From the IMG/VR virus record IMGVR_UViG_3300045988_131721, positions 72,795 to 136,794 of that record: a stretch of 64,000 nt of DNA; one strand, written 5' to 3'. A model generated the notes under the pieces. It was not told where the DNA came from, did no database searches, and was given only the letters and a program-made list of their open reading frames with translations. A program made the translations under genes and the position numbers. Shown in pieces: positions 6,826-58,597 of this stretch (positions are counted from its first letter, which is position 1; each line of letters starts with the position of its first letter). The DNA is from a virus.

Positions 6826-7548
6826 ATGATTATAGTTAGATATAAAAAAGCAAAAAATATAGATGTTTATTTTCCTCAATACGATTGGATTGCCAAAAAT
6901 AAAACTTATCAGAATTTTAAAAACGGTCAAATAAGTTGTCCATATGAGAAAAGATATTTTATGATTGGCTATTTAGGTGAAGGAGATTATAAATCAAGAG
7001 AAAATGGTAAAGATACTAGGGTTTATGATACTTGGGTTAATATGATGCAGAGATGTTATGATTCTAAATATCACGAAAAATATCCTACTTATAAAGATTG
7101 TGGTGCATCTGATGAATTTCATAATTTTCAAAATTTTGGAATGTGGGATGGTGATAATTTCTATCAAGTTGAAGATGAAGTAATGTGTCTTGATAAAGAT
7201 ATTTTAATTAAACATAACAAAATCTATTCACCCGATACTTGCATTTATGTGCCTAAAACAATTAATAGTTTATTTACTAAGAGACAAAATGATAGAGGTG
7301 TCTCGGCTATTGGAACAACTCCTACTGAAAATGGGAAATACGAGGTACAATGTTGTTTAATTAATCCTGAGACTGGAAAATCAAAACAAGAACACCTAGG
7401 TACTTATGATACCGAGTTAGAAGCCTTTGAAGTTTACAAATATTATAAAGAAAAAAATATTAAAATGGTTGCAGACTATTATTTTGGAAAAATATCTGAA
7501 AGACTTTACAATGGTATGTATAATTATATAGTAGAAATAGACGATTAA
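6826..7548 (+). CDS. AP2-domain putative homing endonuclease, paralog 2 (5' end disrupted by a frameshift in an A6 run)
   Basis: The conserved N-terminus KIDRIGEKRFNNFGSEM is encoded upstream (6778-6828) in frame but without a start codon. ATG 6770 (MSKKLIG*) is in a different frame, and A6 lies at 6776-6781. Confidence 0.55.
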   Translation: MIIVRYKKAKNIDVYFPQYDWIAKNKTYQNFKNGQISCPYEKRYFMIGYLGEGDYKSRENGKDTRVYDTWVNMMQRCYDSKYHEKYPTYKDCGASDEFHNFQNFGMWDGDNFYQVEDEVMCLDKDILIKHNKIYSPDTCIYVPKTINSLFTKRQNDRGVSAIGTTPTENGKYEVQCCLINPETGKSKQEHLGTYDTELEAFEVYKYYKEKNIKMVADYYFGKISERLYNGMYNYIVEIDD

Positions 7549-7581
7549 TAATTATAATGAATAAGGGAGGAGGAAATATGT

Positions 7582-7884
7582 ATGTTAAAAGAAAATAAAA
7601 ATAAACAAGTAAAAATATATGAACTTGCAGAAGATTTTTCTGTAATATTAATGAGAGAAGACGTGGATAGAGCTTATAATTGGACGCTTTATTATGACGA
7701 AGAAAAGCCCGATGAAAACAATATCATAGAAGGTATTCAATATGTTGAATGTTGTTGTGACACGAATAAAGAATTAACATTTAATACAGCGTTAGAATAT
7801 TTAATGGATGTAACTAGATTTATAGACGTACATTTTGATAGGATAGTTGAAGGCGAGGAATACGACGACCCTTGGGAAGATTAA
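7582..7884 (+). CDS. acidic hypothetical protein
   Basis: 100-aa ORF with a GGGAGGAGG SD. Rich in D and E. Confidence 0.6.
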   Translation: MLKENKNKQVKIYELAEDFSVILMREDVDRAYNWTLYYDEEKPDENNIIEGIQYVECCCDTNKELTFNTALEYLMDVTRFIDVHFDRIVEGEEYDDPWED

Positions 7885-7911
7885 ATCCTATTCATTTAAT
7901 TAAAAAAGGAG

Positions 7912-8409
7912 GTGATTATTATACCAAATAAAAGTAATAAAATAGGTGCTAAATTTGAAAATAGATTAACAAAACAATTTGAAAAATATAGAAAAGAAGG
8001 AAAGGCTTATATATTTAAGATTCCAACTGAATTTATAGTATTAAGAAAAGGAGCTAAAATCGTATCGGCTTTTCCTAAAAAACAATCACCTTGTCTGGAT
8101 TACATAGGTATATTACCTAATGGAAAAAGCATAGTATTTGAGGCTAAAACAACAGCTAACAAAACTTCTTTTCCTCTTTCAAATATAAAAGACTATCAAT
8201 ATGATTTAATTGATGAGATTCAAAACTATGCAAATAATGTATTCTTTATAATAGAATTTAGAGAATTTAAAGAAGTGTATTTAGTGAGTGGGCTAGCAAT
8301 CAAAAAGTTTAAAGAAAATAACAAGCGTAAGAGTATACCATATAAAGAGTTTAAAAATATAGGTATATTAATGAACGATTTAGATGTATTAAAATATATA
8401 AATTATTAA
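7912..8409 (+). CDS. recU: RecU-like Holliday junction resolvase
   Basis: G.KFE..L......Y...GKA.I.K.PT ... LDYIG.L..GK...FEAKTT.NKTSFPL.NI...Q matches the RecU/PBP-related factor A pattern. The start is ambiguous: GTG 7912 sits directly against the SD, so a nearby non-canonical start is possible. Confidence 0.65.
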   Translation: MIIIPNKSNKIGAKFENRLTKQFEKYRKEGKAYIFKIPTEFIVLRKGAKIVSAFPKKQSPCLDYIGILPNGKSIVFEAKTTANKTSFPLSNIKDYQYDLIDEIQNYANNVFFIIEFREFKEVYLVSGLAIKKFKENNKRKSIPYKEFKNIGILMNDLDVLKYINY

Positions 8410-13209: not shown

Positions 13210-13566
13210 TCAAGTTCTTTCTCCTTCCTCATAAAATTCATTCAACACTTTATTTATAGTAGCTACATTGGGTCTACATGAATCATATTTTTCAGTTCCA
13301 TCACTATACATTCTAAATATTTCTATTGTTTCCTCATCAATTAGTTCAAACTCTAAATAATCGCCATTATCTTTTTCATATTCAAATCGAATACTCTCGC
13401 ATACAGTTGGAAATATTTCAGGTTGATATTTTAATCCATAAATTAAATTTCTCATTATATCAATTAAATCTTTACTAATAGGTTCTGCTCCATATAAGTC
13501 CCAATTATATTTTAATTTTGAAATTAATTTAAGTTTTTCTAAATTAGTCGAATATTTTGCACACAA
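13210..13566 (-). CDS. hypothetical protein (moron-like, bracketed by inverted repeats)
   Basis: 118-aa ORF with a TTG start after AGGGGGTG. It sits between the fibre genes and the lysis genes, with about 250 bp of non-coding DNA downstream. Confidence 0.55.
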   Translation of the reverse strand: MCAKYSTNLEKLKLISKLKYNWDLYGAEPISKDLIDIMRNLIYGLKYQPEIFPTVCESIRFEYEKDNGDYLEFELIDEETIEIFRMYSDGTEKYDSCRPNVATINKVLNEFYEEGERT

Positions 13567-13598
13567 ACTTTACACCCCCTGTAATATTTTTACCTCAT

Positions 13599-13622
13599 TA
13601 TACCACACTTAAAGTTATATTT
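13599..13622. repeat. right arm of inverted repeat (core CCACACTTAAAGTT 13603-13616)
   Basis: Perfect 14-bp reverse complement of 12988-13001. Confidence 0.8.
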
Positions 13623-13649
13623 TCCACAGTTATAGTTTCATACCCTTTA

Positions 13650-14345
13650 TTATAAGGCTATAGTTATTTCAATATATGGTCGAGTACTACCCGTACCACT
13701 AAAATATCCATAATCTGTAACTGCGAATCCAGTTGGTGCTAATAGTCTAAAACCATCAATAGTACCATTTTGGATAGATTGTATTGCTGTACTATTTAAT
13801 GTTAATGTTAAAGTTCCTCCTTTATTAAAATGAGTACTACTACAATATTGAGTAGAATTAACATTATTCATTGAAAAGCTTGTAGGTCTATAAGTATTCA
13901 TATTAGTTGCTCCACTTATTATAGTGTCTAATCCTGCATAATAATACGAATGTAAATTAGTTAATTTTAATTTTACGCTTGTTATTGTTCCTAGCTGTCT
14001 AGCTTGTTCAAATAAACTTTTAAAACATATTATTCCTAAATAATTAAAATTAGGATAATAACCTTGATATATTCTATCTCTTCTATCGTCATTGAAATTA
14101 TCTGTAAATGTTCCAGTTGTACTAGAGCCACGATAACTTCCACTCCAATCAGCATAACCTTTTACAATATATGGTGAAGATGGAGTTGAACCTCCACCTC
14201 CAGAAGAGCCATTGCCTAAATCTATTCTTTCCATACCATTAGAAGTTTTTTTATAAACAGGACAAATTTCCATACCATTAGAAGTTTTTCTATAGATAAG
14301 TATGTTATTTAATGAACCATTTTTATTGATGTATATACCACTCAT
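13650..14345 (-). CDS. tail-fibre-associated structural protein
   Basis: Lies downstream of the fibre gene. Has a Gly/Ser linker and an internal 22-bp perfect direct repeat (14229-14250 and 14268-14289) that encodes a duplicated KTSNGME. Confidence 0.45.
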   Translation of the reverse strand: MSGIYINKNGSLNNILIYRKTSNGMEICPVYKKTSNGMERIDLGNGSSGGGGSTPSSPYIVKGYADWSGSYRGSSTTGTFTDNFNDDRRDRIYQGYYPNFNYLGIICFKSLFEQARQLGTITSVKLKLTNLHSYYYAGLDTIISGATNMNTYRPTSFSMNNVNSTQYCSSTHFNKGGTLTLTLNSTAIQSIQNGTIDGFRLLAPTGFAVTDYGYFSGTGSTRPYIEITIAL

Positions 14346-14355
14346 AAAATCCCTC

Positions 14356-16635
14356 CTAATTAATATTTGAAATTTGCGAATCTGTTAAAACCGAATCATA
14401 TACTTTGATGTATTCATAATCAGAATAACTATTTGTAGCATTGTATAAGTATCTTAATGATGAGGCTCTTCTTGTATAAGTTCCTTCATATTTAGTGTCA
14501 CCTACATTTAAAGTTAATTGTTTCTTAGTAGAATCACATCTCATAACTAAAATTATTTCTCCTGTAGCAACTTTACCTGTTACATTATCACCATTAATTA
14601 TAGCTTGGTAAACTGTGCTTGAAGGCATTATATTACAAGCCATATTATCAGTCCAATTTCCTGTTCCTGCTCCTAAAGTCACAATGTTATCACCAGAAGC
14701 TACTACGCTTGCATTTGTAGGATTAACTAATATTTTAGCCACCACTGTATAACTATTTAAATTTAACGAACCAACATTGCATAAGAAATATTTATCTCCA
14801 TTAAATCTAACTCTACCATTAACTTTTTGCACAGTTCCATTAATTGTAGCTGATTTATCTCCTACTAAATCCACCCATTTATTTGCTCCACTTGTAAAAT
14901 TAGATGCATTTAATTCAAACACAGGATTAGGAACAGTTGTAGTGGTTGTCAATGTAGCACTTGCTGTGATTATTACATTACCAGTAACTTTAGATATGTT
15001 AATTGTATTATTTGCCACTGAAGTAGAAGTTATATTTGTTCCACCCATTGTAACTACTATAGAATTAATAGTATATCCATTATAAGCTGTTAATTTTGCA
15101 CTATATGATTTATTTTTTTCTATACTTGTCATATCATTGTTTGTAATTACATTAGTTAAGTTATTTGAAATAACATATTTATCAGTACTTGGAGTAGTAC
15201 TTCCTCCACTAGAAATTCCTTCTATTTTTATTAATATATCATTTTCTCTAGCGTCTGAAGGGAATTCTGAACCTGTATAAATTCTGATTCCATTTATTTC
15301 AATACAACCTAATGCTAATCTACTATTATTGATTTCTCCATTTCTCTTCATTTCAAATTGAGAATTGTCAACACTGTAATCTATTTTTCCTTCAACTGAA
15401 ACATTTATATCTCCGTTAACATCTAATCTATCTGTTACATTTTTTACCGAATTAACTTCATTTATATCAGCTTTATTAACATACGCTTTATCAAATCTAT
15501 ATTCTTCTGAACCTAAACTAGAACTTATTCCTCTTTCATAAGGTATTAAGCCTTCTTTAGTTGTACGAATAGCTCTAGTTTCATTACCATCTTCAGTAAT
15601 CATACCTTTGTAACCGTCTATCTCTTTAACTAATAAACCTTTTGTTTCATCTATTTTTTCAATGTAATTATTATGTGTATGATTTATATCGGCATATTTT
15701 TTATCGCAATTATTTTTAAAATCTGCTAGAGTAGTTTTAACACTATCTTGTAAATCTTTTATATCTTTTTCACTAGCAAATCCATCAAAATCAATATTAT
15801 TATTGTCCATAATTATTTCAACTAACCATGTACCTATATAACTTAATCTACACTTATAATAACCTCTAGCAAGTCTATAAACATAATCTTTTTCTGCACT
15901 TCTAAATGTTGCATAAATCACTTCTAATGTATTTATGTATAGTATAAATTCATTATGAAAGTCTATACTAGGAAGTTTTATAACTAAATCATTATCTGTA
16001 GTTACACTTTGATATCTATCTAAAGATAAACTTATTTCTCCATTTACAGGAAGTTTATTTACAACCAAATTGTCTAATGAATAATATAAAGCGTCCTCTA
16101 TCTTATTCATTTTTTGTGCTGTTATAGTGTCTTTGTCATACCATGTGGTTTTATTATATCTTTTATTTACATCAAATATATTTATAGGGTCTCCTATAGT
16201 TATATGAGAACTTCCTATACCACCTTGATTTACTCCACTTGAAGTATCCTCTGAATAATCAATTATAGGATTTACATGAAATTGATTATAAATTATAGGT
16301 AAATGGATTTCACTGTTATCTTTACCAAATAATTTTATTTGAAAATTATAATCTCCTATTTCTACAACTTCATCAACTATATCTTCTGTAACTTTTAAAA
16401 TTATTTCGTTAATATCTACTGCTGTTTTGGGAAGAACCACTTTGGTTTTATTAGGTTTTTCTAATGTTATTTGAGAATAACTAGCACCTTCTATACCTTC
16501 GCCATTAGAAAATTTATAAGGAAAACCATCAACAGTAAAATAAAGCACTATATCTTTATCTTTTTTGCTTAAAAATATATCTCTATCTAATGTTGCTTTA
16601 CCACTTTTTATTTTTATATTAAATTTGCCGTACAT
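14356..16635 (-). CDS. tail fibre / baseplate upper protein-like, with Ig-like repeat and C-terminal LamG-like domain
   Basis: The N-terminus is paralogous to 20782..22023 and 42358..43656 (BppU-N-like). Contains the motif TTWYDKDTITAQKMNKIEDAL typical of fibres. An Ig-like 75-aa module is shared with 40424..42343. The C-terminus looks concanavalin/LamG-like. Confidence 0.6.
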   Translation of the reverse strand: MYGKFNIKIKSGKATLDRDIFLSKKDKDIVLYFTVDGFPYKFSNGEGIEGASYSQITLEKPNKTKVVLPKTAVDINEIILKVTEDIVDEVVEIGDYNFQIKLFGKDNSEIHLPIIYNQFHVNPIIDYSEDTSSGVNQGGIGSSHITIGDPINIFDVNKRYNKTTWYDKDTITAQKMNKIEDALYYSLDNLVVNKLPVNGEISLSLDRYQSVTTDNDLVIKLPSIDFHNEFILYINTLEVIYATFRSAEKDYVYRLARGYYKCRLSYIGTWLVEIIMDNNNIDFDGFASEKDIKDLQDSVKTTLADFKNNCDKKYADINHTHNNYIEKIDETKGLLVKEIDGYKGMITEDGNETRAIRTTKEGLIPYERGISSSLGSEEYRFDKAYVNKADINEVNSVKNVTDRLDVNGDINVSVEGKIDYSVDNSQFEMKRNGEINNSRLALGCIEINGIRIYTGSEFPSDARENDILIKIEGISSGGSTTPSTDKYVISNNLTNVITNNDMTSIEKNKSYSAKLTAYNGYTINSIVVTMGGTNITSTSVANNTINISKVTGNVIITASATLTTTTTVPNPVFELNASNFTSGANKWVDLVGDKSATINGTVQKVNGRVRFNGDKYFLCNVGSLNLNSYTVVAKILVNPTNASVVASGDNIVTLGAGTGNWTDNMACNIMPSSTVYQAIINGDNVTGKVATGEIILVMRCDSTKKQLTLNVGDTKYEGTYTRRASSLRYLYNATNSYSDYEYIKVYDSVLTDSQISNIN

Positions 16636-17047: not shown

Positions 17048-18817
17048 CTAAAATCCATTTTTGTGATTAGCTCTTACATATGTTGGATAATCGAAATAGC
17101 AAGTATCAAAATCTACGTCTACTCCACCGTAACCACTTAATTTCTTATATCCACCTTGCCATAATTTAACATCAGTTCTAGTCCAAGTACAAGCTGAACT
17201 CCATTGAGCCACCCATATGTGGTCAGTATATTTTACATTATTCCAATTTACATAATTTGTTGCCCATGAGTTATTAGTATAAATTCCTGCCATATATCCT
17301 GCATCATTTATTATTTGACAAAAAGCGTTCATACAATTTGTCAATACGGTTTTGCCAGGATTCCCTAATTTATCAACTAAGTCATTTTCTTGGTCAAAGA
17401 ATATTGGGAATTCAAATGTTTGAGAATACTTATTTAATTGTTGAACCACCCAATTTGCTTCTATTTTAACCTTTTCAACTGTATTTGCATATGAGAAAAA
17501 ATACACACCTACAGGTATTTTGTTTTCAACACATCCTTTTAAATATTCTTCAAATTTAGGGTCTATTATAGGTTGTCCACCTTTTCTGCTACCATAACCT
17601 ATTCTAAGTATTGCAAAGTTAGTTTCGCCATAAGTTTTAATTTTAGCGAAGTCAAGATTTCCTTGATATTTAGATATATCTACACCCATACAAGGCACTG
17701 TAAATCCTGTATTGCCACCTACTTCTCCCGTTCCTCCTGCATCAACTGTTATAGTGGATATAGTTACATATGAGGGATTAGCATTTATATACCCTATACT
17801 ATTATTGTAACTTACTTTAACCCATGAAGTATTTGTATAGGTTTCAAGTATTGGTAATGTATATCCATTAGGTATAGCTCCTAATACTGGATATTTTACA
17901 CCCATACCACTTCTAACGTTTAAAGCATTACAAATTACTTTTGCAACTTTAGTAGTAGAAGATAATAATAATCCCACATACGCTTTACCTGTATTTTCTC
18001 CTATTGCAGTAGCAGTAGGTTGGTCTTTACAGTTTATAGCGAATACGGGAAGACTGTGTGAAGAACTTAATCCTAAAGCATCCTTACTTATTGTTCCTGT
18101 TATTTGGAATACCTTACCATCTATATCTTTTCCAGTGTCTGCAAATTTAACATATTGTCCAACATATCTTTGGTCGGTAGTTAAACATACATTTTTATCT
18201 GGATATTTATCACTTGTAAATTCTGAATCTATATAATAACCCATTATAGTTGAGTCTAAAGTTAAATTAGATACCCATACAGTTTTATCTTCAGCAGGTG
18301 GTTTTATAGGTGTTGGATTACTCGGAACATCTTTACCGTCGTCGTCATCGTCTTTAGGTTCTTCATAAATTCTTATCCATAATTTATATTTTGGGTCATT
18401 AGGAATATCACTACCAATATATATTTCTTCTTCTGTAAAATGTTCAAACATATATTTAAATATATCATTAAGAGAATCGAATTTAGTTCCTTCAATTAAA
18501 CCTTCTTTATAACTGCATAATTCTTTTCTCATAGTTTCAATTAATTCATCTTTAGTCATATCGTTATTATCTAATAAAGCTCCTATGCCTTTTACTTCAT
18601 ACGCAACTTTAATTTCCGTATCTAACTCTTCAAAAGAAGAAATTATCAAACATTCTCTTTCTTCGTCATATTCTGGTTTTACTCCGTTTATTTTTTTAAA
18701 CCCATATCTTTTCATTAAATCTTCATTTGTATTAAAATTAGTAATTAATATCCCATCCGAAGTTTTGTAATTTATCGGAGCAAATATTAATTTTCCGTTA
18801 ATAATTTTACCGTACAT
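17048..18817 (-). CDS. tail-module GH25 muramidase with SH3-like domain
   Basis: The C-terminal GVDISKYQGNLDFAKIK...FAILRIGYG...VGVYFFSYA pattern matches glycoside hydrolase family 25. The central ALNVRSG......G.......W.KV is SH3-like. Confidence 0.8.
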   Translation of the reverse strand: MYGKIINGKLIFAPINYKTSDGILITNFNTNEDLMKRYGFKKINGVKPEYDEERECLIISSFEELDTEIKVAYEVKGIGALLDNNDMTKDELIETMRKELCSYKEGLIEGTKFDSLNDIFKYMFEHFTEEEIYIGSDIPNDPKYKLWIRIYEEPKDDDDDGKDVPSNPTPIKPPAEDKTVWVSNLTLDSTIMGYYIDSEFTSDKYPDKNVCLTTDQRYVGQYVKFADTGKDIDGKVFQITGTISKDALGLSSSHSLPVFAINCKDQPTATAIGENTGKAYVGLLLSSTTKVAKVICNALNVRSGMGVKYPVLGAIPNGYTLPILETYTNTSWVKVSYNNSIGYINANPSYVTISTITVDAGGTGEVGGNTGFTVPCMGVDISKYQGNLDFAKIKTYGETNFAILRIGYGSRKGGQPIIDPKFEEYLKGCVENKIPVGVYFFSYANTVEKVKIEANWVVQQLNKYSQTFEFPIFFDQENDLVDKLGNPGKTVLTNCMNAFCQIINDAGYMAGIYTNNSWATNYVNWNNVKYTDHIWVAQWSSACTWTRTDVKLWQGGYKKLSGYGGVDVDFDTCYFDYPTYVRANHKNGF

Positions 18818-49410: not shown

Positions 49411-50412
49411 TTATGCAGATATTTTTATCATTGCGTATGTAGAAGCTATAGCAACTCCTAAGTGTAACATACGATTCATTTCCATTTCTATTTGATAGTC
49501 TTGTCTATCTCCTTCTGTATCTTCGTACAATTCAACATCACCTTCATATCCAAGTTTTACAAGTGATTCTCCAACTGGAACTATTAATAACATATCGTCA
49601 TCAACTTCAAAAGCACCAGTAGTTTTATCATAATAATTTGGTAATGGAACTAAAGGAGTACCTTCAAATACTTGAGTATATCCATAATTTCTTCTATCGT
49701 CTTTTTCAGCATCTGATACAAAAGTCGCATCTGATTTTACATGAGCTAATGCTGTTTTAGTTCCTAGTATTTGAACTTCTTGACCTGTAGAATCTGCAAC
49801 TTTAGCTATCATTTCTTTTAAAGTAGTTGATAAAGCACCGTCATTAGATGCTTTACATAAATTTGGATTTCCAGAAGCATCATAAGCTCCAAATATAGTT
49901 TTTGTAACTAAAGTACATACTTTTTTATCAAAAGATTTAGATACTCTATCTACAAATAAAGTCCAGTCTATATTTCCTTTTAAGAAATCAAACATTTCAG
50001 CATAGATTTTAACGCCTAATCTGAAAGCTTTAGTATCTACCTTTTTATCATAGATTCTTTGTCTATGAACTGTTTTGACACCAGTAGCCATTATAGCAAC
50101 TTTGAACAATTCGTCATTTTGAATTAAGAATTCTTTTTTATCTCCTATATCAAAAGTGTCAACATCTACTAAATCCCCAAAAGATTCAACAGTTATTTCG
50201 TTATGAGTTACAGTTATTAATTCTTCTAATAATTCAAATACTGTATTACCATTTCTTTTTAACCATCTTCTATAATTAGATTTCTTTTCTGGAAGTGGTT
50301 CTACTTTTTCAAATATCATATTTCTTATAACATCTGAAGCTTCTTTTCTTGAATAAGAACACACACCGTTATGTAAGTCTATTACCATTTGTCTAACATC
50401 GTTATCTATCAT
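49411..50412 (-). CDS. major capsid protein
   Basis: About 333 aa, in the position after the scaffold and decoration-like genes. Strong SD (TGGAGGT) 7 nt before ATG 50412. Confidence 0.65.
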   Translation of the reverse strand: MIDNDVRQMVIDLHNGVCSYSRKEASDVIRNMIFEKVEPLPEKKSNYRRWLKRNGNTVFELLEELITVTHNEITVESFGDLVDVDTFDIGDKKEFLIQNDELFKVAIMATGVKTVHRQRIYDKKVDTKAFRLGVKIYAEMFDFLKGNIDWTLFVDRVSKSFDKKVCTLVTKTIFGAYDASGNPNLCKASNDGALSTTLKEMIAKVADSTGQEVQILGTKTALAHVKSDATFVSDAEKDDRRNYGYTQVFEGTPLVPLPNYYDKTTGAFEVDDDMLLIVPVGESLVKLGYEGDVELYEDTEGDRQDYQIEMEMNRMLHLGVAIASTYAMIKISA

Positions 50413-50427
50413 TCTTTTAACCTCCAT

Positions 50428-50973: not shown

Positions 50974-52236
50974 TTATTTTTTAGTTCTCCATTTTTCTAA
51001 TCTACCACCGTAAGGTGCATTAGAATCTATAAATTCTTCATTTGGATTTATTATACCTATTGAATTAGCCTTTCCAGTTTTAGTTTTACTAAATGATTGA
51101 GCTTCTTTAACTTGTTTAGCCCACATTATAGCTAATTTCCCTTCATATTCTTCTTTAGATATTTCATGTTTTAATACTGTGTCTTGAAGTGCTTTAGCAT
51201 CTTCTGTATCTAAAGAATATTTTTCAGTTATAGAATCAATTTCTAATTTAAATTGTTTAGCATCGCTATCAGCTTTAAATTGTTTTAATTCTTCATAATC
51301 ACTCATGTTTTCTAATTGAGTTTTTAATTCTTCATATTCAACTTTTAATTGGTCAAAAGCAGTTTTTAATTGTGTATATTTTTCATCTTCTGTGTTATCT
51401 TCAACAGAATGATTTTCCTTATCTTTATCTTCTTCCTCTTCTGAACAATCTTCTTTCTTTTCTTCAGAATTATCTTGAGAACATTCTTCTTCATCTGGAG
51501 TGAAATCTTCTTGTTGAGTTTCCTCTTGATTTTCAAATTCTTCAGTTTCTTGAACTTCTTGATTTTCAAACTCTTTGTCCATTGTTTCACCTCCCTTTTC
51601 TAAAGAATAAATTTTCTTCATTTCTTCTAATTCAGTTTTAACATCTCCACAAGTGAACAGAGATAAGTTAGCTCCTGCCATAGCAGGTTTAACACCTACA
51701 CCAAGCATTGTTATACCTAAAAAAGTAAAATCAGTTATTTCAAAGAATCCATCTTCTCTAAAGCTGAAATCGTCAACATCTATTTCCATAGATACCTCTA
51801 ATGTACCATCATTAGAATCTAATACATCAAGTAATTGTTGGGAATATTCTCTCCATATTAATGCTGTGCAAGATAAATATTTCTTGCCGTCTTTTTCTAC
51901 TTGTGTAATTATAGTATCTTCTGGAACGAATCCATAAGCTTTTTCAAGATATATTAATTGATAATCATAACCATCTGGGGTGTCTGTAGTTTCTATTTTA
52001 GTATCATGTCCACCTAAAACCCATTTGTCATCTTCATTTTTATAAACATGAGCCAATAAAGGTATACCCCTAATACTTTTTTCGGCACATTTCATTTGTG
52101 TTTCTGAATCAAACCAAGAACCATTTAAATTGTCTTGGTCGTGGCATACAAGTATTCTGCATCCTACAAATCTACTATCACTTGAAGATTTAAAAACTTC
52201 CATTTCACTATATAATTTTAAATGTTTATTTCCCAA
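50974..52236 (-). CDS. scaffold protein, possibly with N-terminal prohead-protease-like domain
   Basis: Has a very acidic central linker and a C-terminal coiled coil. The N-terminal ...IPLLAHVY...GGHD loosely recalls HK97-type prohead proteases. TTG start. Confidence 0.45.
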   Translation of the reverse strand: MGNKHLKLYSEMEVFKSSSDSRFVGCRILVCHDQDNLNGSWFDSETQMKCAEKSIRGIPLLAHVYKNEDDKWVLGGHDTKIETTDTPDGYDYQLIYLEKAYGFVPEDTIITQVEKDGKKYLSCTALIWREYSQQLLDVLDSNDGTLEVSMEIDVDDFSFREDGFFEITDFTFLGITMLGVGVKPAMAGANLSLFTCGDVKTELEEMKKIYSLEKGGETMDKEFENQEVQETEEFENQEETQQEDFTPDEEECSQDNSEEKKEDCSEEEEDKDKENHSVEDNTEDEKYTQLKTAFDQLKVEYEELKTQLENMSDYEELKQFKADSDAKQFKLEIDSITEKYSLDTEDAKALQDTVLKHEISKEEYEGKLAIMWAKQVKEAQSFSKTKTGKANSIGIINPNEEFIDSNAPYGGRLEKWRTKK

Positions 52237-52260: not shown

Positions 52261-52446
52261 TTAGAAAAATAATTTATTAGAAAACATGAATTTTCTTTTA
52301 TCTTCATTACTGAATTTAACTTTAGTACTATTAAGAAAAATATAAACAGTTTTATTGTCTATAATACCTTCAGATAAAAACACTAATCCTTGATTTAAAA
52401 GTTCATGTTTATCTTCTTCATTAAATGCATATATGAATTTATTCAT
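52261..52446 (-). CDS. small DUF5659-like protein
   Basis: 61 aa. The pattern IY.F......LLN.GL......I....VY.F is paralogous to 54336..54512. Confidence 0.45.
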   Translation of the reverse strand: MNKFIYAFNEEDKHELLNQGLVFLSEGIIDNKTVYIFLNSTKVKFSNEDKRKFMFSNKLFF

Positions 52447-52456
52447 AATATATCAC

Positions 52457-53308
52457 CTACTCATTTATATATAAAAATCCTTCACCTTGAAGTTTTGAAC
52501 TTATACCTAAGTCTTTAGTATGCTTAATAAGTCTTGCATATAATTCTTCTTCTGAAGGAATTCTACCATATTTATTTATAAATTTTTCTCTTAACAATAA
52601 TGCTGTTCCTGCAACTATAGGGCAAGCCATTGAAGTTCCACTACTTTTGCACCATTTATTGTTAAAATATACTGAAACAATATCAGTTCCAACAGCCACC
52701 AAATCTACCCATTTATTTGAATTACTATATTTTGCAATAGATAAATCTTGATTTACTGCACCAACGTTTACACATTCTTGATAACTAGCAGGATATCCAT
52801 ATTCATCTGTATCTGCATTTCCATCACCGTCATTACCTGCTGAAGTAACAACAAGAATACCACGTTTATTAGCTTCTTTTACTAATTCATGTAATTCTTC
52901 ATCACTTTTGGTACTTCCTAAACTCATAGATATAACATGAACATTTTGTTCTAAGGCATATTTAAAAGCATTTATAATACCTTCTATACTACCTTTACCT
53001 TTAGAGTTTAACGCTTTAGCAACTACTACTTCACACTCTGGTGCTACTTGTATTATCTCACCTATACAAAAACTACCATGATTATTTTTATCAGTGTAAT
53101 CTTCTGAAGTTCCTTCATTTGTAAAATTTTTACCTGCTACAATATTATTAACTATAAATGAATGAAGATGTGAACCTGTATCAATAATACAAATTCTTTG
53201 TCCTTTTCCTTTATATCCTTGTTCATGTAAAATTTGTATATTAGAAAGTTGTATTCCTTTACACATATAATTACTATAAGGATTTGTTGATAAAATATTA
53301 TAATCCAT
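52457..53308 (-). CDS. subtilisin-like serine protease (peptidase S8)
   Basis: Full catalytic triad context: IIDTG (Asp), NNHGSF (His), GTSMACP (Ser), and the oxyanion Asn in SAGNDG. Confidence 0.8.
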   Translation of the reverse strand: MDYNILSTNPYSNYMCKGIQLSNIQILHEQGYKGKGQRICIIDTGSHLHSFIVNNIVAGKNFTNEGTSEDYTDKNNHGSFCIGEIIQVAPECEVVVAKALNSKGKGSIEGIINAFKYALEQNVHVISMSLGSTKSDEELHELVKEANKRGILVVTSAGNDGDGNADTDEYGYPASYQECVNVGAVNQDLSIAKYSNSNKWVDLVAVGTDIVSVYFNNKWCKSSGTSMACPIVAGTALLLREKFINKYGRIPSEEELYARLIKHTKDLGISSKLQGEGFLYINE

Positions 53309-53316
53309 TATATCAC

Positions 53317-54309
53317 CTATCCTAAATTTAATTCTTTTATTAATATTCCTTCTATATTATCCATGTCATAATACCAAATTTCTAATAAATTAATATTATG
53401 TTCTTTAGCATAATTTCTTTTTCTTTTATCATGCTCTAATTGTCTTTCAAAATCCTTCTTTGACATCCAGGTCTTTTGCCATGATTTATGTTGTTCTCCT
53501 TGACATTCTATTAATAAATTATAATCTGGTAAATAAAAATCGTATGATAAATTGCCATTTCCTAATCCTAACAATCCCTCATATTTTACTTGTGTCTTAT
53601 AATTAATATTATATTTTTCTAATATATTTTTAGTTTTTGTTTCTAATTGTGAAGAATTACAATTTATGCAAATAACACCTGTATCAGCTCGATTTAAAAC
53701 TTTTAATTCCCTCTCAAATTCACTTCCACATTCTTGACATATAAATTTATATTTTTTATGACTCTTAGGAGTGACTTCATAAGAAGATTTATCATTATTA
53801 GGAGACCAATACTTCGCTTTATCGGGATATAAAGTACCAAAACTATCTAAAGGATGTACTTTACCTCGTCTAGTGCTACAATACGGACATCTATCACCTC
53901 TCGAAAACTGATGTCCCGTAGTTTTATAACTCCCATGTTGATTATTTTTGACACACTTTATATAAACTATTTTTTTAGCACCCTTATAAATCAGATAAGG
54001 ATTTAATTCATTCTTTTTCCAATCCCAGTATTTATTTAAAGGTTCTTTTAATTCTTGTTGAATATAATAGGCAAAACTATTTTCATAAGCATTACAGCAA
54101 TTGGTACATTTATCTTTTCTATTTATAAAACTATATTTAACGACGTCATATTCCTCATCACAATAAGGACATTTAACTCTAATATAAGTAGCATTATGTT
54201 TTTCATTCTTCATATCCATAGTTGTTTCATTTTTATGATAACTTCCTATATAAACATATCCGTCTCCACGATTTTCAACTCTTTCTTTGTGCTTTTCATT
54301 AAAATACAT
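53317..54309 (-). CDS. multi-zinc-ribbon protein with C-terminal PD-(D/E)xK (DUF559/Vsr-like) endonuclease fold
   Basis: Several CPYC...C..C ribbons, each followed by a YW(D/S).(K/N)N-type motif. The C-terminal YDFYLPDYNLLIECQGEQH is typical of DUF559-type nucleases. Likely a free-standing homing-type nuclease. Confidence 0.6.
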   Translation of the reverse strand: MYFNEKHKERVENRGDGYVYIGSYHKNETTMDMKNEKHNATYIRVKCPYCDEEYDVVKYSFINRKDKCTNCCNAYENSFAYYIQQELKEPLNKYWDWKKNELNPYLIYKGAKKIVYIKCVKNNQHGSYKTTGHQFSRGDRCPYCSTRRGKVHPLDSFGTLYPDKAKYWSPNNDKSSYEVTPKSHKKYKFICQECGSEFERELKVLNRADTGVICINCNSSQLETKTKNILEKYNINYKTQVKYEGLLGLGNGNLSYDFYLPDYNLLIECQGEQHKSWQKTWMSKKDFERQLEHDKRKRNYAKEHNINLLEIWYYDMDNIEGILIKELNLG

Positions 54310-54327
54310 ATATATTCCTCCTAATAT

Positions 54328-54341
54328 TTTATTAATTATTT
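54328..54341 (-). repeat. AT-box (perfect)
   Basis: Overlaps the stop of 54336..54512, upstream of the SD of 53317..54309. Confidence 0.8.
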
Positions 54342-54512
54342 TTTATTCCACTTATTTAATGCTAAATCTAAATCTTTATCTCTCATAAATACCCAAAATG
54401 TTTTATGATTATTGGGATTTAATCCACAAACATAATATTTAAGTCCTTCATTTATTAAAAAATTTTTTTGCTTAGCATCATAACATATATATAATGGATT
54501 TTTATATTTCAT
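54336..54512 (-). CDS. small DUF5659-like protein (58 aa, MKYKNPLYICYDAKQKNFLINEGLKYY...)
   Basis: ATG follows TAAGGAGG. Not in the ORF track because it is under 60 aa. Confidence 0.5.
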   Translation of the reverse strand: MKYKNPLYICYDAKQKNFLINEGLKYYVCGLNPNNHKTFWVFMRDKDLDLALNKWNKK

Positions 54513-54529: not shown

Positions 54530-55996
54530 TTAATAATCTCCAGCATTACTACTCTCTGGCATTCTATTCGGGTCACCAGACTCCTCTGATGCACTCGGTC
54601 TTCCACCAGTATCTCCAATTTCAGAACCATTCATAGTATGCGAGTTGGCTAATGGAGTCATCAAACTATTAAAATCTAATATACTTTCTATTTGAAGTAT
54701 ATTTAACGCTTCTAATGGTGAATATCCACATAATCCTAAATATTCCAATTTGCTTGCCCATGTAGTTAATCTATTGCAACTAGATTGGATTCTTTCCTCT
54801 TTATTAAATTTGGTTGTATCACAAAAACACAATTGAAAGTTCTTTAATGATGAATTTTTACTAAAAGCATAATTTAACCATATTTTAATTCTATCTAATA
54901 GATTTAATGGCATTAAACTATCTACAATTGTTCCATAGATTACAGATTGAGTACTACTTCTATTGTCTCCATTAAATAAATTACTATCTATACCAGCTGT
55001 ATCGTATACATTTTTAGTTAAATTGTTTATTTCCTCATAATCAGAAACTTTATTGGTTTGTAATGAAACGGAATCTATTGGATAAGGTGAACTTACAACA
55101 CCTATACCATCTCTGACATTTTTAACTAATGCTCTATGATAAAACGTTGCCGTTTCTGGTTCTATACTTAAATCACCATCATCATCCGTAGGTAATAATT
55201 GATGAATTAATTTAAAATTATTAGCCTCAATATTTTCCATGCTAGCATCTGCTAAATCTTTTATTCTACTTAAATCTAAAAGCAATCCAGAATAATATGG
55301 AATACCTTTACTTTCTATTACTTCTGGAAGAAAAGCTATTGCATTTTCAAGTGGTAACATATAATAGTTGTCTATGAAATTTTCATCATTTTTCAATTTA
55401 CCTGCTTTATAATCAGCGTATAAATTTTGAATATCTATTGGGTAATATCCTAATTGTTTAGTATTAATACCACTAAGTTTTATACTATAACCTAACATAA
55501 AAGATTCGGTATAAGTAACTTTGCATAAATCTTCTGGTAAAGAAACAAATGTAATATTATCACTTGTTTCTTGTTTATATAAATATATTTCTCCTTTTCT
55601 AAATTCGCTTTCTAAAATCCAGGGACAAAGAGTTTTTAAATTATATTTTTCTAACTCTAAACAGGCTTTTCTGTAAGATTTAAAAAAGTTATCTTGTCCT
55701 TTAGTTATAAATTTACTTGCATCTAATGGGACTAAATAATGGTCGTAAGTTAATAAATTCGATTTATAATTTATTATTTCTTTTAAATTACCATTAATAA
55801 CCCTCATTAATTCAGATTGTTGTTGTAGTGTAGTAACATTAGAATAAGGATTTTCTAAGGCACTAGCTATTGTATCCGTATCAACTTTACTTCTCTTTCT
55901 ACTACTAGCTACCTTATCTATACTATTTATATCAATCATAGAAGATTTCTGTGCAAATTCTAAATTATTCTTTCTATTATCTTTCCCTTCGTTCAA
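54530..55996 (-). CDS. portal protein
   Basis: 488 aa immediately downstream of terL. TTG start after AAGGTGGTGA. Confidence 0.7.
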   Translation of the reverse strand: MNEGKDNRKNNLEFAQKSSMIDINSIDKVASSRKRSKVDTDTIASALENPYSNVTTLQQQSELMRVINGNLKEIINYKSNLLTYDHYLVPLDASKFITKGQDNFFKSYRKACLELEKYNLKTLCPWILESEFRKGEIYLYKQETSDNITFVSLPEDLCKVTYTESFMLGYSIKLSGINTKQLGYYPIDIQNLYADYKAGKLKNDENFIDNYYMLPLENAIAFLPEVIESKGIPYYSGLLLDLSRIKDLADASMENIEANNFKLIHQLLPTDDDGDLSIEPETATFYHRALVKNVRDGIGVVSSPYPIDSVSLQTNKVSDYEEINNLTKNVYDTAGIDSNLFNGDNRSSTQSVIYGTIVDSLMPLNLLDRIKIWLNYAFSKNSSLKNFQLCFCDTTKFNKEERIQSSCNRLTTWASKLEYLGLCGYSPLEALNILQIESILDFNSLMTPLANSHTMNGSEIGDTGGRPSASEESGDPNRMPESSNAGDY

Positions 55997-56013: not shown

Positions 56014-57774
56014 TTAATTAGCCAAGAAAATATGTCTCTTTTTCTTATTCCTATTTTTCTTTCTTATATCTCTTTCTATCAATTCTGCTAAATAATTACC
56101 ATAAGTAATAGAAGAATATCTATCCTTACGATTTCTTCCTTTTTCTTTAAGAACTATATCACCATTCCCCATAGTTTCATAATCTAAGTTTATTGATTCA
56201 AATATAAAATTAGATGTTTGAATAAATGGTGCTATTTTATTAGCATGATATTCTGCGTCTTGATGATATTTTAAGTCTTTACTAAAATCTCCTCTTTTTT
56301 CATTTTCTTCTATTAATAATCTTATTTTTTTACTACTAAAAGCATTTTTAAGATATACTGCACAATCATTATTTATTTTTTGATTCCCTTTAATTACATA
56401 TATACAATTTATACCATTTTTTAAAGGTTGAAAATCTTTTGATTGCGTACTCATATCATAAATGCCAAAAGGTTCGTAATGTTCATCAATATTTTCGTCA
56501 TAAGATGATTTTTCCATCTCTTGTATTACTGCTATACCTAAACCACCACCATCTATAATGATTTTATCAGCTTTAAATTCTGTATATAATCTCTTAATTC
56601 TAGTGGCTTGTTTTTCAAATTTCATACCATTATGTGATTCCATATAAACAACTTCTCTAATAATATTATTTCCACTAGGAAGTAATCTCCATAAAGTAAA
56701 AATAGAGTTATCATTTTTATTTGATTTGTTAGCTTTTGCCGTTGCTACGTCAACTGAAATTATTCTTATTTCATCTTTCTTTTTAGGCATTCGTTTTAAT
56801 TTTTCTTTCTTTTTATCTGGATTCCTATAATCGTCGTCCGTTAATGGATAATAACAATTCTTTAGAACTCTTGCATTCAACATATCTGCTGTATTAAAGA
56901 AACAATCTCCACTTTGTCCATGCCATATAGCACCATATTCCATATTAAATACAAATTCACCCATATCCTCTTTATCTTCTTCAATCTTATCTTTTAAGAC
57001 AAGTTTATGGTCTAAAGATGCCAAATAAGGAATTGCACAAGCAAATGCTTTTCCACTTTCAAACATTCTATTAAATATGGTTGTGAATTTTTCATAACTC
57101 CAGTGAACTTTTAACCATGCACTAGAAAGATATATTTCCATGTTAGATTCAAGAGGATAATCCTTATATTCGGGTTTTTCTAAAAATGGAGGTTTTCTTG
57201 GATTTGTTAAGAATTGTTTTAAAACTGAATTTATTATATCTAATTTGATAAGCCTAAATTCATCTGCAACCAATACATTCCCTCTCAAGCCCCTCGCTCC
57301 ATCATTAGAAGCTATAGCTGTTATTACAGAACCATTTTTAAATATACATTTAACATTATCTTTATTATTTTGAACTTTTTTAATTTCTTTTGCTAACGCA
57401 GGGTATTCCCTTCGTAAATCTTCAATCTTTTCGGTTATAATTAATCCTGCCTGGTCTTTGTTACCAGATGCAACTATTATTTTAGAACCTGGATATAATA
57501 TTGCTCTACAACATACAAATATCGCAGTTAGAAATGACTTACCGAGACCACGTGACGCAATAAAGCAGAAACTTGTGCATATATTCATCATGTAAAGTAA
57601 TACTTGTTGAAACCAATATAAATTAATTCCTAACCAATCCATACAAAATCTATGTGGATTTTTTCTAAAATATTCTGTCCATATTTTTACACCATCTAAT
57701 AAATTTTCATATGAATCTTTTTTTAAGTTTTTTCTTTGTTTGCATTTTAATCTATTCTCCATATCCTTTTTCAT
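56014..57774 (-). CDS. terL: terminase large subunit
   Basis: Walker A SRGLGKSF, Walker B VLVADEF, and a C-terminal RNaseH-like nuclease region (IIIDGGGLG). The start is uncertain: candidate ATGs at 57774 and 57762, and the ORF is open to 57801. Confidence 0.85.
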   Translation of the reverse strand: MKKDMENRLKCKQRKNLKKDSYENLLDGVKIWTEYFRKNPHRFCMDWLGINLYWFQQVLLYMMNICTSFCFIASRGLGKSFLTAIFVCCRAILYPGSKIIVASGNKDQAGLIITEKIEDLRREYPALAKEIKKVQNNKDNVKCIFKNGSVITAIASNDGARGLRGNVLVADEFRLIKLDIINSVLKQFLTNPRKPPFLEKPEYKDYPLESNMEIYLSSAWLKVHWSYEKFTTIFNRMFESGKAFACAIPYLASLDHKLVLKDKIEEDKEDMGEFVFNMEYGAIWHGQSGDCFFNTADMLNARVLKNCYYPLTDDDYRNPDKKKEKLKRMPKKKDEIRIISVDVATAKANKSNKNDNSIFTLWRLLPSGNNIIREVVYMESHNGMKFEKQATRIKRLYTEFKADKIIIDGGGLGIAVIQEMEKSSYDENIDEHYEPFGIYDMSTQSKDFQPLKNGINCIYVIKGNQKINNDCAVYLKNAFSSKKIRLLIEENEKRGDFSKDLKYHQDAEYHANKIAPFIQTSNFIFESINLDYETMGNGDIVLKEKGRNRKDRYSSITYGNYLAELIERDIRKKNRNKKKRHIFLAN

Positions 57775-58597
57775 CCTCCTCTGTATAAGGAGTTGAATCA
57801 TTATTTATTAACTTTTTAATAGGATTTAAGAAGTAACGATTTAACCACCATTTAATTCTATCCACATCATCGTATTCTGGGTGGACATCTGGAATAGGTT
57901 CATTTTTTTCTACTTTAGCAATTAATGTACCATAACTTAAATTATCGTCTTCACCATATTTGCTCATTTTAGATGGTAAAACATTTAATTCTTCCATACG
58001 TTTGGAAATTTGATTAGTTAAGTTTTCAAATGCTTTTTGGTCATTCTTGACTATAGCTCTTTCTCTTAGAACCTCTAACATACATATTGTTTTAATTAAA
58101 TTAACTTCTTGAATGGCTTTAGACGGATAATTATCTGTGTATTGTTCATATTTTCTTTGGAGTAATTCATACTCATCATCTTGAAATCCCTTACCCCAAA
58201 AGTTAACAACCTCACTTGAAGTAACTGTCTCTCCAGTAATAATATTAGTTACACCATCATAAGTAAGCATATTATCTAAAGATGTTAACCCTTTAAATGC
58301 TTTATCTCTATTCATTATTCTAGTATAATTACCTAAAAAATTATTGCCATATTTCTCAACACATTTCAGATATGTTTCTTCGTCATAATACATATCTAAA
58401 ACCATACATAAATGTATAAATGCTAATCTATGGTCGTTGTTATAATTTTTTAATAACTTTTTAAAATATTTATCAACTACTTCTTTACTCATGGGTAATT
58501 TCTTATCATGCTCATAAAGCATTGATTGTGTAGAGTAGAAATCTCTAACGGTAGGTTTAAATTTACCTGTAGCTGAACATTGTTTTGTGTCTGCCAT
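57752..58597 (-). CDS. putative terminase small subunit / DNA-packaging accessory protein
   Basis: First gene of the late block, overlapping terL. No motif recognised; the call is by position. Confidence 0.4.
   Translation of the reverse strand: MADTKQCSATGKFKPTVRDFYSTQSMLYEHDKKLPMSKEVVDKYFKKLLKNYNNDHRLAFIHLCMVLDMYYDEETYLKCVEKYGNNFLGNYTRIMNRDKAFKGLTSLDNMLTYDGVTNIITGETVTSSEVVNFWGKGFQDDEYELLQRKYEQYTDNYPSKAIQEVNLIKTICMLEVLRERAIVKNDQKAFENLTNQISKRMEELNVLPSKMSKYGEDDNLSYGTLIAKVEKNEPIPDVHPEYDDVDRIKWWLNRYFLNPIKKLINNDSTPYTEEDEKGYGE

Follow-up and report, generated by a model that had tools for sequence, protein, structure and literature searches.

What does a subtilisin-like protease do in the head operon of a phage? 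The question is raised by IMG/VR record IMGVR_UViG_3300045988_131721, a complete viral record of 136,794 bp with direct terminal repeats, of which we analysed the right half (positions 72,795 to 136,794, 64,000 nucleotides, ~27% G+C; hereafter the window). The phage is an SPbeta/phiCD211-like gut siphophage, whose distant kin are the large Clostridioides phages phiCD211 and LIBA2945 and also SPbeta, Lactococcus 949 and Tsamsa-type phages; at the DNA level, megablast of its head region found zero matches to cultured phages. Four open reading frames (ORFs) occupy the slot between the portal gene and a gene for a 420-residue scaffold-like protein, with the large terminase gene (TerL) upstream of the slot and the major capsid protein gene downstream. 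An earlier reading, made from the sequence alone, had described these ORFs as an S8 subtilase and a nuclease flanked by two paralogous small genes, and had proposed that the protease might be a novel capsid maturation enzyme, an ejected effector, or part of a mobile cassette bounded by the small genes. The four ORFs were confirmed at their predicted positions, all on the minus strand. We refer to them as smallA, nuclease, S8 and smallB.

On balance we favour a reading in which this part of the late head operon is an accessory hot spot built up in layers, not one mobile cassette, and in which S8 is a dispensable, trans-acting protease and the nuclease a homing gene. S8 is very probably not the prohead protease. 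The kinds of protein involved are already known: subtilases, among them the intracellular subtilisin proteases (ISPs), homing endonucleases, and protease-scaffold fusions. The features on which the argument draws are these:

56014..57801, minus strand: large terminase (PF03237 and PF17289)
54530..55996, minus strand: portal (SPbeta YonE/phiCD211 gp3 type; phrog_2739, E 4e-94), the upstream border of the slot
54336..54512, minus strand: smallA, 58 residues, variable accessory gene tentatively placed in the DUF5659 family (phrog_21297)
54328..54340, minus strand: gene-junction linker AATAATTAATAAA, an exact match, overlapping the stop codon of smallA, with the nuclease gene directly downstream
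53317..54309, minus strand: nuclease, 330 residues, predicted free-standing homing endonuclease (PF14311, E 7e-9; phrog_559, phrog_9084)
52457..53308, minus strand: S8, 283 residues, apparently a minimal ISP-type protease (PF00082)
52261..52446, minus strand: smallB, 61 residues, core head-module protein (phrog_13023)
50974..52236, minus strand: probable prohead protease-scaffold fusion (YonD type), 420 residues (phrog_3313)
49411..50427, minus strand: major capsid protein (YonB type; phrog_4088; homologues in relatives L021-L023 are labelled PF27364 YonB)

The genes of the slot are tightly packed, with intergenic gaps of 8-26 nt and ribosome-binding sites reading AGGAGG or AGGTGAT. Along the minus strand from ~58757 to 49400 there are zero terminator-like sites, and promoter-like sites are not enriched. 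Because the gaps are short and these signals are lacking, the four slot genes most likely lie on the late head/packaging transcript. For the head region of the window, Rfam gave no RNA match, although hits up to E 1 were allowed.

We compared the slot among 17 close relatives from viral contigs (portal 81-96% identical), 16 of which cover it. SmallB is present in all 16, S8 in 15 (it is missing in L016), and smallA in 12 (missing in L006, L013, L019 and L016). The nuclease stands at the window's site in half of them (8/16), has moved to the junction of smallB and scaffold in L006, and is absent in 7. The more distant phiCD211 and LIBA2945, with portals 29-33% identical to the window's, have only portal, smallB and scaffold in this order, and the slot of L016 is built likewise, though L016 is a close relative. 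This comparison, which the sequence-only reading had proposed as a check, bears out its view of the interval as accessory and variable, with smallB as the constant gene and the other three as the variable ones.

The S8-free relative is especially informative. When L016 is set beside L015, which has S8, their identity is 94.7% across TerL and portal and 98.5% over the stretch that begins at the S8 stop codon and takes in scaffold and capsid. Between these stretches, a 2.09-kb block comprising the portal tail, smallA, nuclease and S8 is replaced by 69 bp encoding a divergent portal tail, so that the portal tail allele differs exactly at the site of the missing S8 block.

The same comparison bears on the idea that S8 and the nuclease, lying between two small genes, form a single mobile cassette. 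SmallA and the nuclease do co-occur in the window's clade, and in L021, too, a nuclease paralogue has a smallA-like gene before it. However, S8 occurs without the nuclease in L003, L004, L007, L013, L019 and others, and three S8-bearing relatives (L006, L013 and L019) lack smallA, while smallB is universal and belongs to the core even where S8 is missing. Nor do the small genes look like duplicated cassette ends, since they share no DNA similarity and only ~20-28% protein identity. No DNA repeats bound the island, where only short chance matches were found, which itself argues against a single mobile cassette. The genome's two other nuclease paralogues also lack a DUF5659 neighbour; for this reason a smaller, two-gene mobile unit of smallA and nuclease was considered and rejected as well. 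The one-cassette idea is contradicted by the gene content of the close relatives, and we give it almost no credence.

Instead, the slot between portal and scaffold is a general insertion hot spot, because other lineages hold different cargo there. This cargo includes two different DNA methyltransferases with a DPPY motif (L032:6196-6960; L037:6235-6954), a 1079-residue fibre-like protein (L028:4326-7565), a P-loop-like ORF of 160 residues, and winged-helix-like ORFs of 250 and 313 residues (L022:5386-5868 and 7345-8097; L030:8073-9014).

Could S8 be the enzyme that matures the capsid? The sequence-only reading had remarked that subtilases are not among the usual prohead proteases, and this holds: S8 matches PF00082 only, and none of the HK97/S78, U35, S14 ClpP-like, S49 or U9 families. 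Its neighbour is a better candidate. The 420-residue protein consists of an N-terminal protease-fold domain (residues 1 to ~205), an acidic linker and a C-terminal coiled coil. Its first 230 residues (51547-52236) were modelled by AlphaFold with a pLDDT of 88, and the modelled domain resembles predicted phage prohead proteases in BFVD (E 1e-18 to 1e-5), including entries named 'Prohead protease' (E 5e-18 and 2e-15) and, at E 1e-7 to 1e-5, COG3740 head maturation proteases, a T4-type prohead core protease, and proteases of Streptococcus SpSL1 and Leuconostoc 1-A4. His77, Ser149 and Glu151 are invariant in 62 diverse homologues (those in L021-L023 are labelled PF27290 YonD_N), and the His/Ser protease domain is intact with or without S8 in the genome. 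On these grounds the domain probably represents a divergent family of prohead proteases that, in SPbeta/phiCD211-like phages, is joined to the scaffold. The layout is like that of P2 gpO, Mu gpI, the lambda C/Nu3 fusions and HK97-fold S78 enzymes, in which a protease-like fold (His, then Ser) is followed by a linker and a coiled-coil scaffold, and the gene likewise lies just upstream of the capsid gene. Unlike these known fusions, the 420-residue protein has no sequence match to Pfam S78/U35 or HK97 gp4, and Foldseek gave no PDB hit. S8, for its part, is not related to the fusion family. Because the 420-residue protein combines a prohead-protease-fold domain with a coiled-coil scaffold, the phage has a probable conventional maturation protease, fused to its scaffold.

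Several observations thus lead us to conclude that S8 is very probably not the prohead protease, contrary to the proposal of a novel capsid maturation enzyme. First, the scaffold protein already carries a prohead-protease fold with invariant His and Ser. Second, L016 has a 98.5% identical scaffold-capsid region without any S8. Third, two S8 alleles that are ~45% identical serve near-identical head modules. Finally, the phiCD211 and LIBA2945 types, along with several other head modules with YonD and YonB, have no S8 in the slot. Set against this conclusion, the viability of L016 is an assumption, and the protease assignment of the 420-residue protein rests on predicted, not solved, structures: for its N-terminal domain, Foldseek gave nothing below E 0.1 in the PDB, the Pfam protease models were without a match and hhalign detected no similarity to HK97 gp4, and the profile of the whole protein matched only coiled coils among solved structures. 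To label the subtilase a new prohead protease would nevertheless very probably be an annotation error in a large, uncultivated family of Clostridia-type gut phages. We also considered the C-terminal tail of the portal as an S8 substrate and rejected it, because the GGRP motif is common to the tails with or without S8 and shows no correlation with it. Across the broad group, all portals (for example window 54530-54640) conserve this C-terminal GGRP motif, after which come ~20 variable residues, acidic or polar in character.

If S8 does not mature the capsid, what kind of enzyme is it? The PF00082 profile aligns to S8 from position 1 to 286 of its 288 (E 5.8e-39; 134.6 bits, with the cut-off at 21.8), and Asp43, His77 and Ser226, together with the oxyanion Asn159, are invariant in an alignment of phage and cellular homologues. 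The earlier description of a complete subtilisin-like protease with an intact Asp-His-Ser triad was therefore sound. Its best solved relatives are the ISPs 7y6m, 7xr8, 6f9m and 2x8j (E 3e-55 to 6e-49), while secreted subtilisins score ~1e-36 (subtilisin BPN', 9e-37). Cellular homologues at 40-45% identity are Firmicute S8 peptidases of 315-320 residues, and close phage copies of S8 are named 'major intracellular serine protease' by some sources. Measured against the bacterial ISPs (B. subtilis IspA/Isp1, B. clausii ISP 2X8J/2WV7 and Planococcus ISP 6F9M), S8 is 40-45% identical across the catalytic domain, with the same triad and oxyanion Asn, and like them it has neither a signal peptide nor an I9 prodomain; by direct reading of the sequence, only 16 residues precede the catalytic domain and they contain no hydrophobic stretch.

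S8 differs from the bacterial ISPs in being encoded by a phage, in a head operon, within a phage clade of its own, and it also differs at both ends. The ISP propeptide contains an inhibitory LIPY/F motif, whose role has been described (PMC6220982). In our alignment, cellular ISPs read L/V-I/L-P-F/Y at this point, whereas the phage forms start M-D-Y-N-I, M-E-F-K/N or K-I-A/S-D-Y/F; the Pro is missing from every phage form, and in S8 the Leu-Ile-Pro is gone and the aromatic Y/F residue kept. At the other end, phage S8 proteins stop 2-5 residues past a G-x-G-x-hydrophobic motif, whereas the cellular homologues run on for 10-35 residues, and this C-terminal extension serves dimerisation in solved ISPs. 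The window's allele also has a deletion of 11 residues after the His helix. Taken together, the sequence comparisons point to an ISP-type enzyme by descent that fails two regulatory features of the ISP family, and from these missing features we infer that S8 is not self-inhibited in the ISP manner.

The protein is otherwise a bare catalytic domain of 283 residues, in which no MuF, portal-binding or capsid-targeting domain was found. This bears on the proposal that S8 travels inside the head, close to the portal, and leaves with the DNA at ejection, in the way of SPP1 gp7/MuF-type or other internal proteins. Its appeal lies in gene position, because the S8 gene stands where MuF/gp7 stands in Mu-like and SPP1-like modules, an argument of the sequence-only reading whose gene order we could confirm. 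Yet the domains that such a role would suggest are lacking, with zero Pfam or PHROG matches to a MuF/SPP1 gp7-like domain among all four slot proteins, and S8 is dispensable in L016. We regard packaging and ejection as very improbable.

How long has S8 been in the slot? S8 directly follows the portal, and is itself followed by a smallB homologue and a YonD-type gene, in no fewer than six lineages with portals only 29-36% identical to the window's. Identity to the window's S8 in these head-module lineages falls from 60% (L021/L027) through 54% (L022) and 52-54% (L028-31) to 43-47% (L032-39) and 37-42% (L056/57/L132-135). In a further lineage (L023, L159-161), S8 lies between TerL and portal. 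In a maximum-likelihood tree, 31/32 distinct head-module S8 proteins form one clade with support 95/98; neither the cellular ISPs nor the S8 genes of Bacillus and other phages fall within it, and the sole head-module S8 outside it is of the TerL|portal type. Within the window's own group there are two alleles, of 283 residues and of 299-300 residues (the latter in L005, L014, L017 and L018), which are 42-46% identical to each other. Across genomes with either allele, scaffold and capsid are mostly 96-100% identical, the exception being L017 (scaffold 91% and capsid 81% identical to the window's). Ratios of nonsynonymous to synonymous substitution (dN/dS) are 0.26 and 0.13-0.20 for the two alleles and 0.13 for the portal, indicating that both S8 alleles are under purifying selection.

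This selection, together with the place beside the portal in diverged lineages and the single clade, argues that S8 is an old resident of the slot in many lineages and not a recent passenger, a point missed by the sequence-only reading. The simplest reading of the tree and gene order is that a cellular ISP gene was captured once, long ago, at the portal|smallB junction and then descended vertically, with occasional allele exchange and loss. S8 would thus have been kept by purifying selection in many lineages, and would at times have disappeared or given way to an allele 45% identical to it while the capsid genes stayed the same. The result, and a new finding, is a phage-specific ISP clade, devoid of the usual regulatory features, that resides next to the portal gene in a broad set of uncultivated gut phages. 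Being kept there and yet dispensable, it offers a clean target for learning the role of a second late protease. Next to one TerL|portal-type S8 domain we also observed an in-frame fusion to a zinc-ribbon N-terminus of the homing-endonuclease type (P0073, 386 residues), which is probably the scar of an endonuclease insertion and deletion beside S8.

Such persistence beside the portal could mean that S8 is an auxiliary head-morphogenesis protease working alongside the scaffold-fused protease, helpful but non-essential, which might for example clear scaffold fragments or trim a minor head or portal-associated protein. The classical order of portal, protease, scaffold and capsid, with predicted co-transcription with the head genes, would suit this role, as would the position beside portals in six or more lineages, with a further one that has S8 at TerL|portal, and the monophyly and purifying selection of the S8 clade. 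The scaffold also has a long acidic disordered linker, and ISPs prefer unfolded or disordered proteins as substrates. However, the head module seems indifferent to S8: the S8-free sibling has a 98.5% identical scaffold-capsid region, phiCD211, LIBA2945 and other YonD/YonB-type head modules lack S8, the His/Ser domain of the scaffold is intact regardless, and S8 alleles only 42-46% identical accompany capsid proteins that are 96-100% identical. An auxiliary part in head assembly is a possibility we take seriously but consider rather unlikely.

Presence/absence and allele replacement are also typical of host-interaction genes, and S8 might instead be a host-directed effector or counter-defence enzyme that degrades host proteins late in infection, such as immune sensors triggered by the portal or capsid proteins that are produced at that stage. 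In keeping with this, the slot holds DNA methyltransferase genes in other lineages, S8 has no ISP self-inhibitory motif, and the homologous SPbeta portal YonE triggers the abortive-infection protein SpbK (PMC11984713). On the other hand, the known SPbeta-type counter-defence gene, Nip, is an early gene at another locus (PMC11984713), and a position conserved over such deep divergence is unusual for anti-defence genes. Searches of S8 against models of defence, anti-defence and named families returned the generic subtilase domain only, and none reached the family cut-offs. A counter-defence role therefore strikes us as improbable.

A different clue comes from S8 enzymes elsewhere in phages. P0087, which is 41% identical to S8 and was found in two samples, fuses a Phage_holin_1 domain to S8 and is encoded after an XhlA-like gene and before an integrase gene in a temperate siphophage; a Phage_holin_1::S8 fusion placed in this way, behind an XhlA-like gene, is seen at L157:5670-7125. 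In a PBSX-like element, the S8 gene for P0058 lies between XkdW-like and XhlA genes (L156:5494-7447). At L050:4245-7587 the order is XhlA, S8 with a Cu_amine_oxidN1 domain, an ORF of 108 residues, a GH25 endolysin and a holin, and at L047:3580-6013 it is a predicted coiled-coil/membrane protein (weak XhlA match, E 0.004), S8 with a SPOR domain, and an Amidase_2 endolysin. Three further S8 proteins carry Cu_amine_oxidN1, and on seven more contigs weak XhlA-like matches lie 2-4 kb from S8. Judged by domain content and gene order, these enzymes of lysis cassettes appear to have the architecture and position of endolysins. They come from uncultivated Firmicute phages and share with the window's S8 an ISP-type catalytic domain (34-41% identical), a phage-encoded, late setting and the lack of signal peptides; unlike it, they have added wall-binding or holin domains, and their genes are placed with XhlA on one side and the endolysin and holin genes on the other, whereas the window's enzyme is a bare domain in a head operon. 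These lysis-cassette S8 enzymes that bear wall-binding or holin modules are a new by-product of this analysis, and our literature search turned up no publication on phage S8 proteases in either setting, head module or lysis cassette.

Because these related phage S8 enzymes are built like endolysins and reside in lysis cassettes, our leading guess, and a tentative one, is that S8 helps in lysis and egress. On this hypothesis S8 would be made late with the head proteins, without a prodomain or the ISP inhibitory motif, and would act in trans on substrates other than the capsid. It would be a late, cytoplasmic, trans-acting protease, apparently dispensable for capsid assembly, that would digest envelope or wall-associated protein after the holin opens the membrane. 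Extending the idea to the whole family is more speculative and, in our judgement, doubtful: among the lysis or egress factors of Firmicute phages, the ISP-type S8 enzymes would then make up a proteolytic class so far undescribed, endolysin-like in small temperate phages, where they bear a Cu_amine_oxidN1 or SPOR wall-binding domain or a holin fusion, and stripped down and moved into the head operon in large SPbeta/phiCD211-like gut phages. In these large phages the enzyme would accumulate in the cytoplasm during late expression and become effective only after the holin opens the membrane; ISPs are calcium-dependent, and external calcium might at that point switch it on, allowing it to shred S-layer or wall-anchored protein that hinders the release of virions. 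If the wider idea were true, S8 enzymes with wall-binding or holin modules could represent an unrecognised class of proteolytic lysins, of use to phage lysis biology and to enzybiotic design.

There is a good deal to be said against a role in lysis. The window's S8 has no wall-binding domain, no lysis genes adjoin it, and it lies ~35 kb from the sole GH25 lysin-like gene. Its clade occupies the head/packaging module in every lineage and never a lysis cassette, which favours a head-related role, and in the tree this clade is separate from the lysis-cassette enzymes, so that function may have diverged. The GH25 muramidase domain in question, the only one in the genome, is encoded on the minus strand at window positions 17156-17683 (record 89950-90477), inside an ORF of 593 residues that may be an endolysin or a virion-associated lysin; no Amidase_3 domain was found in the genome.

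In contrast to the long-resident S8, the nuclease comes and goes: genomes at least 90% identical differ by its presence or absence, its relocation, and its 3' remnants. What drives this movement? Two DUF4379 treble-clef zinc fingers (PF14311) match its N-terminus, and its PHROG matches are to 'HNH/homing endonuclease' families. The AlphaFold model (pLDDT 85) places the C-terminal domain close to the catalytic domain of I-Bth0305I (3r3p_B; Foldseek template modelling (TM) score 0.69, root-mean-square deviation 3.8, 22% identity, probability 1.00), with further matches to Vsr (1vsr and 1cw0). Within this domain D257, E268, H274, H293, D294, R296 and K297 are invariant and E292 is conserved at 90%, giving a DUF559-like pattern, D257...E268-x-Q...H274...E292-H293-D294-x-R296. 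The motif reads L-E-H-D and not literally E-D-x-H-D, and was compared with I-Bth0305I by pattern. The model and motif suggest a free-standing homing endonuclease of the Vsr/I-Bth0305I fold (EDxHD, PD-(D/E)xK superfamily). The earlier assignment as a zinc-ribbon, DUF559-like nuclease of the PD-(D/E)xK type was thus correct, and its description as a homing-type passenger is supported by both the fold and the mobility.

The nuclease is like I-Bth0305I and Vsr in its catalytic fold and its behaviour as a mobile phage gene. It is unlike I-Bth0305I in its DNA-binding part, an array of DUF4379 treble clefs whose finger number varies across paralogues, and unlike intron-encoded homing endonucleases in standing free between genes. 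Forms of 330, ~410, ~490 and ~570 residues differ in the number of zinc fingers. The family is very large, with more than 1,100 clusters, mostly on phage contigs of 130-140 kb, and its alleles are too diverged for a meaningful dN/dS. Four nuclease-free relatives (L003, L004, L007 and L018) retain a scar of ~60 bp from the 3' end of the gene, and because this scar remains, the nuclease was lost there and not merely never acquired. With natural occupied, empty and scarred sites, the zinc-finger/Vsr-fold family should be useful for studying spread in phage structural operons.

The insertion point itself is marked. The nuclease starts 26 nt past the smallA stop codon, which is embedded in the linker AATAATTAATAAA. 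This linker occurs 30 times in the window against 6.2 copies expected, and nuclease paralogues elsewhere also abut it, which suggests that the nuclease was inserted just after an A/T linker at the smallA stop codon.

In many close relatives the TerL gene is split (after residue ~86, 171 or 210-223), as is the capsid gene (after residue ~285 or 297), by inserts of 0.3-1.3 kb, for example at L003:5454-6708 and 13551-14882, L008:5983-6822 and L014:5240-6823. Several of these inserts encode nuclease paralogues, and at least one shifts the reading frame, for which reason they are intron-like and not inteins; Rfam found no group I or II intron in the split genes, with hits up to E 1 allowed. In the window itself, neither TerL nor the capsid gene is split.

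What, finally, are the two small proteins that flank S8 and the nuclease? Both had been called DUF5659-like. In the profile searches proposed for them, four of seven members of the smallA family matched DUF5659 (best E 1.7e-5), whereas only one of 13 did so in the smallB family (E 0.05), and neither of the window's proteins matches DUF5659 (PF18903) itself. The label thus stands, weakly, for smallA and its family, and fails for smallB, whose family is distinct. The call of paralogy likewise survives in part. The two proteins are 28% identical over 39 residues, and profile-profile comparison by hhalign (probability 87%, E 4e-6, 20% identity) points to remote homology, not to a recent duplication.

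SmallA has a dN/dS of 0.09. SmallB is 46-48% identical to its orthologue gp4 of phiCD211, LIBA2945 likewise has one small gene between portal and scaffold, and a smallB homologue lies directly upstream of the YonD-type gene in the window's clade, in phiCD211 and LIBA2945, and in every S8-bearing lineage examined. This conservation indicates that smallB is a core head-module gene of a distinct family (phrog_13023). Between smallA and the next gene, some relatives have in addition a 55-bp unit, TCATAGGTGATTTATAATATAGAAATGTTAATACAATAATATAG, which lies between two copies of the linker TAATTAATAAA (L011:9660-9740, L017:9662-9743 and L007:9662-9765); it is missing from the window and may be a portable promoter-like or regulatory unit.

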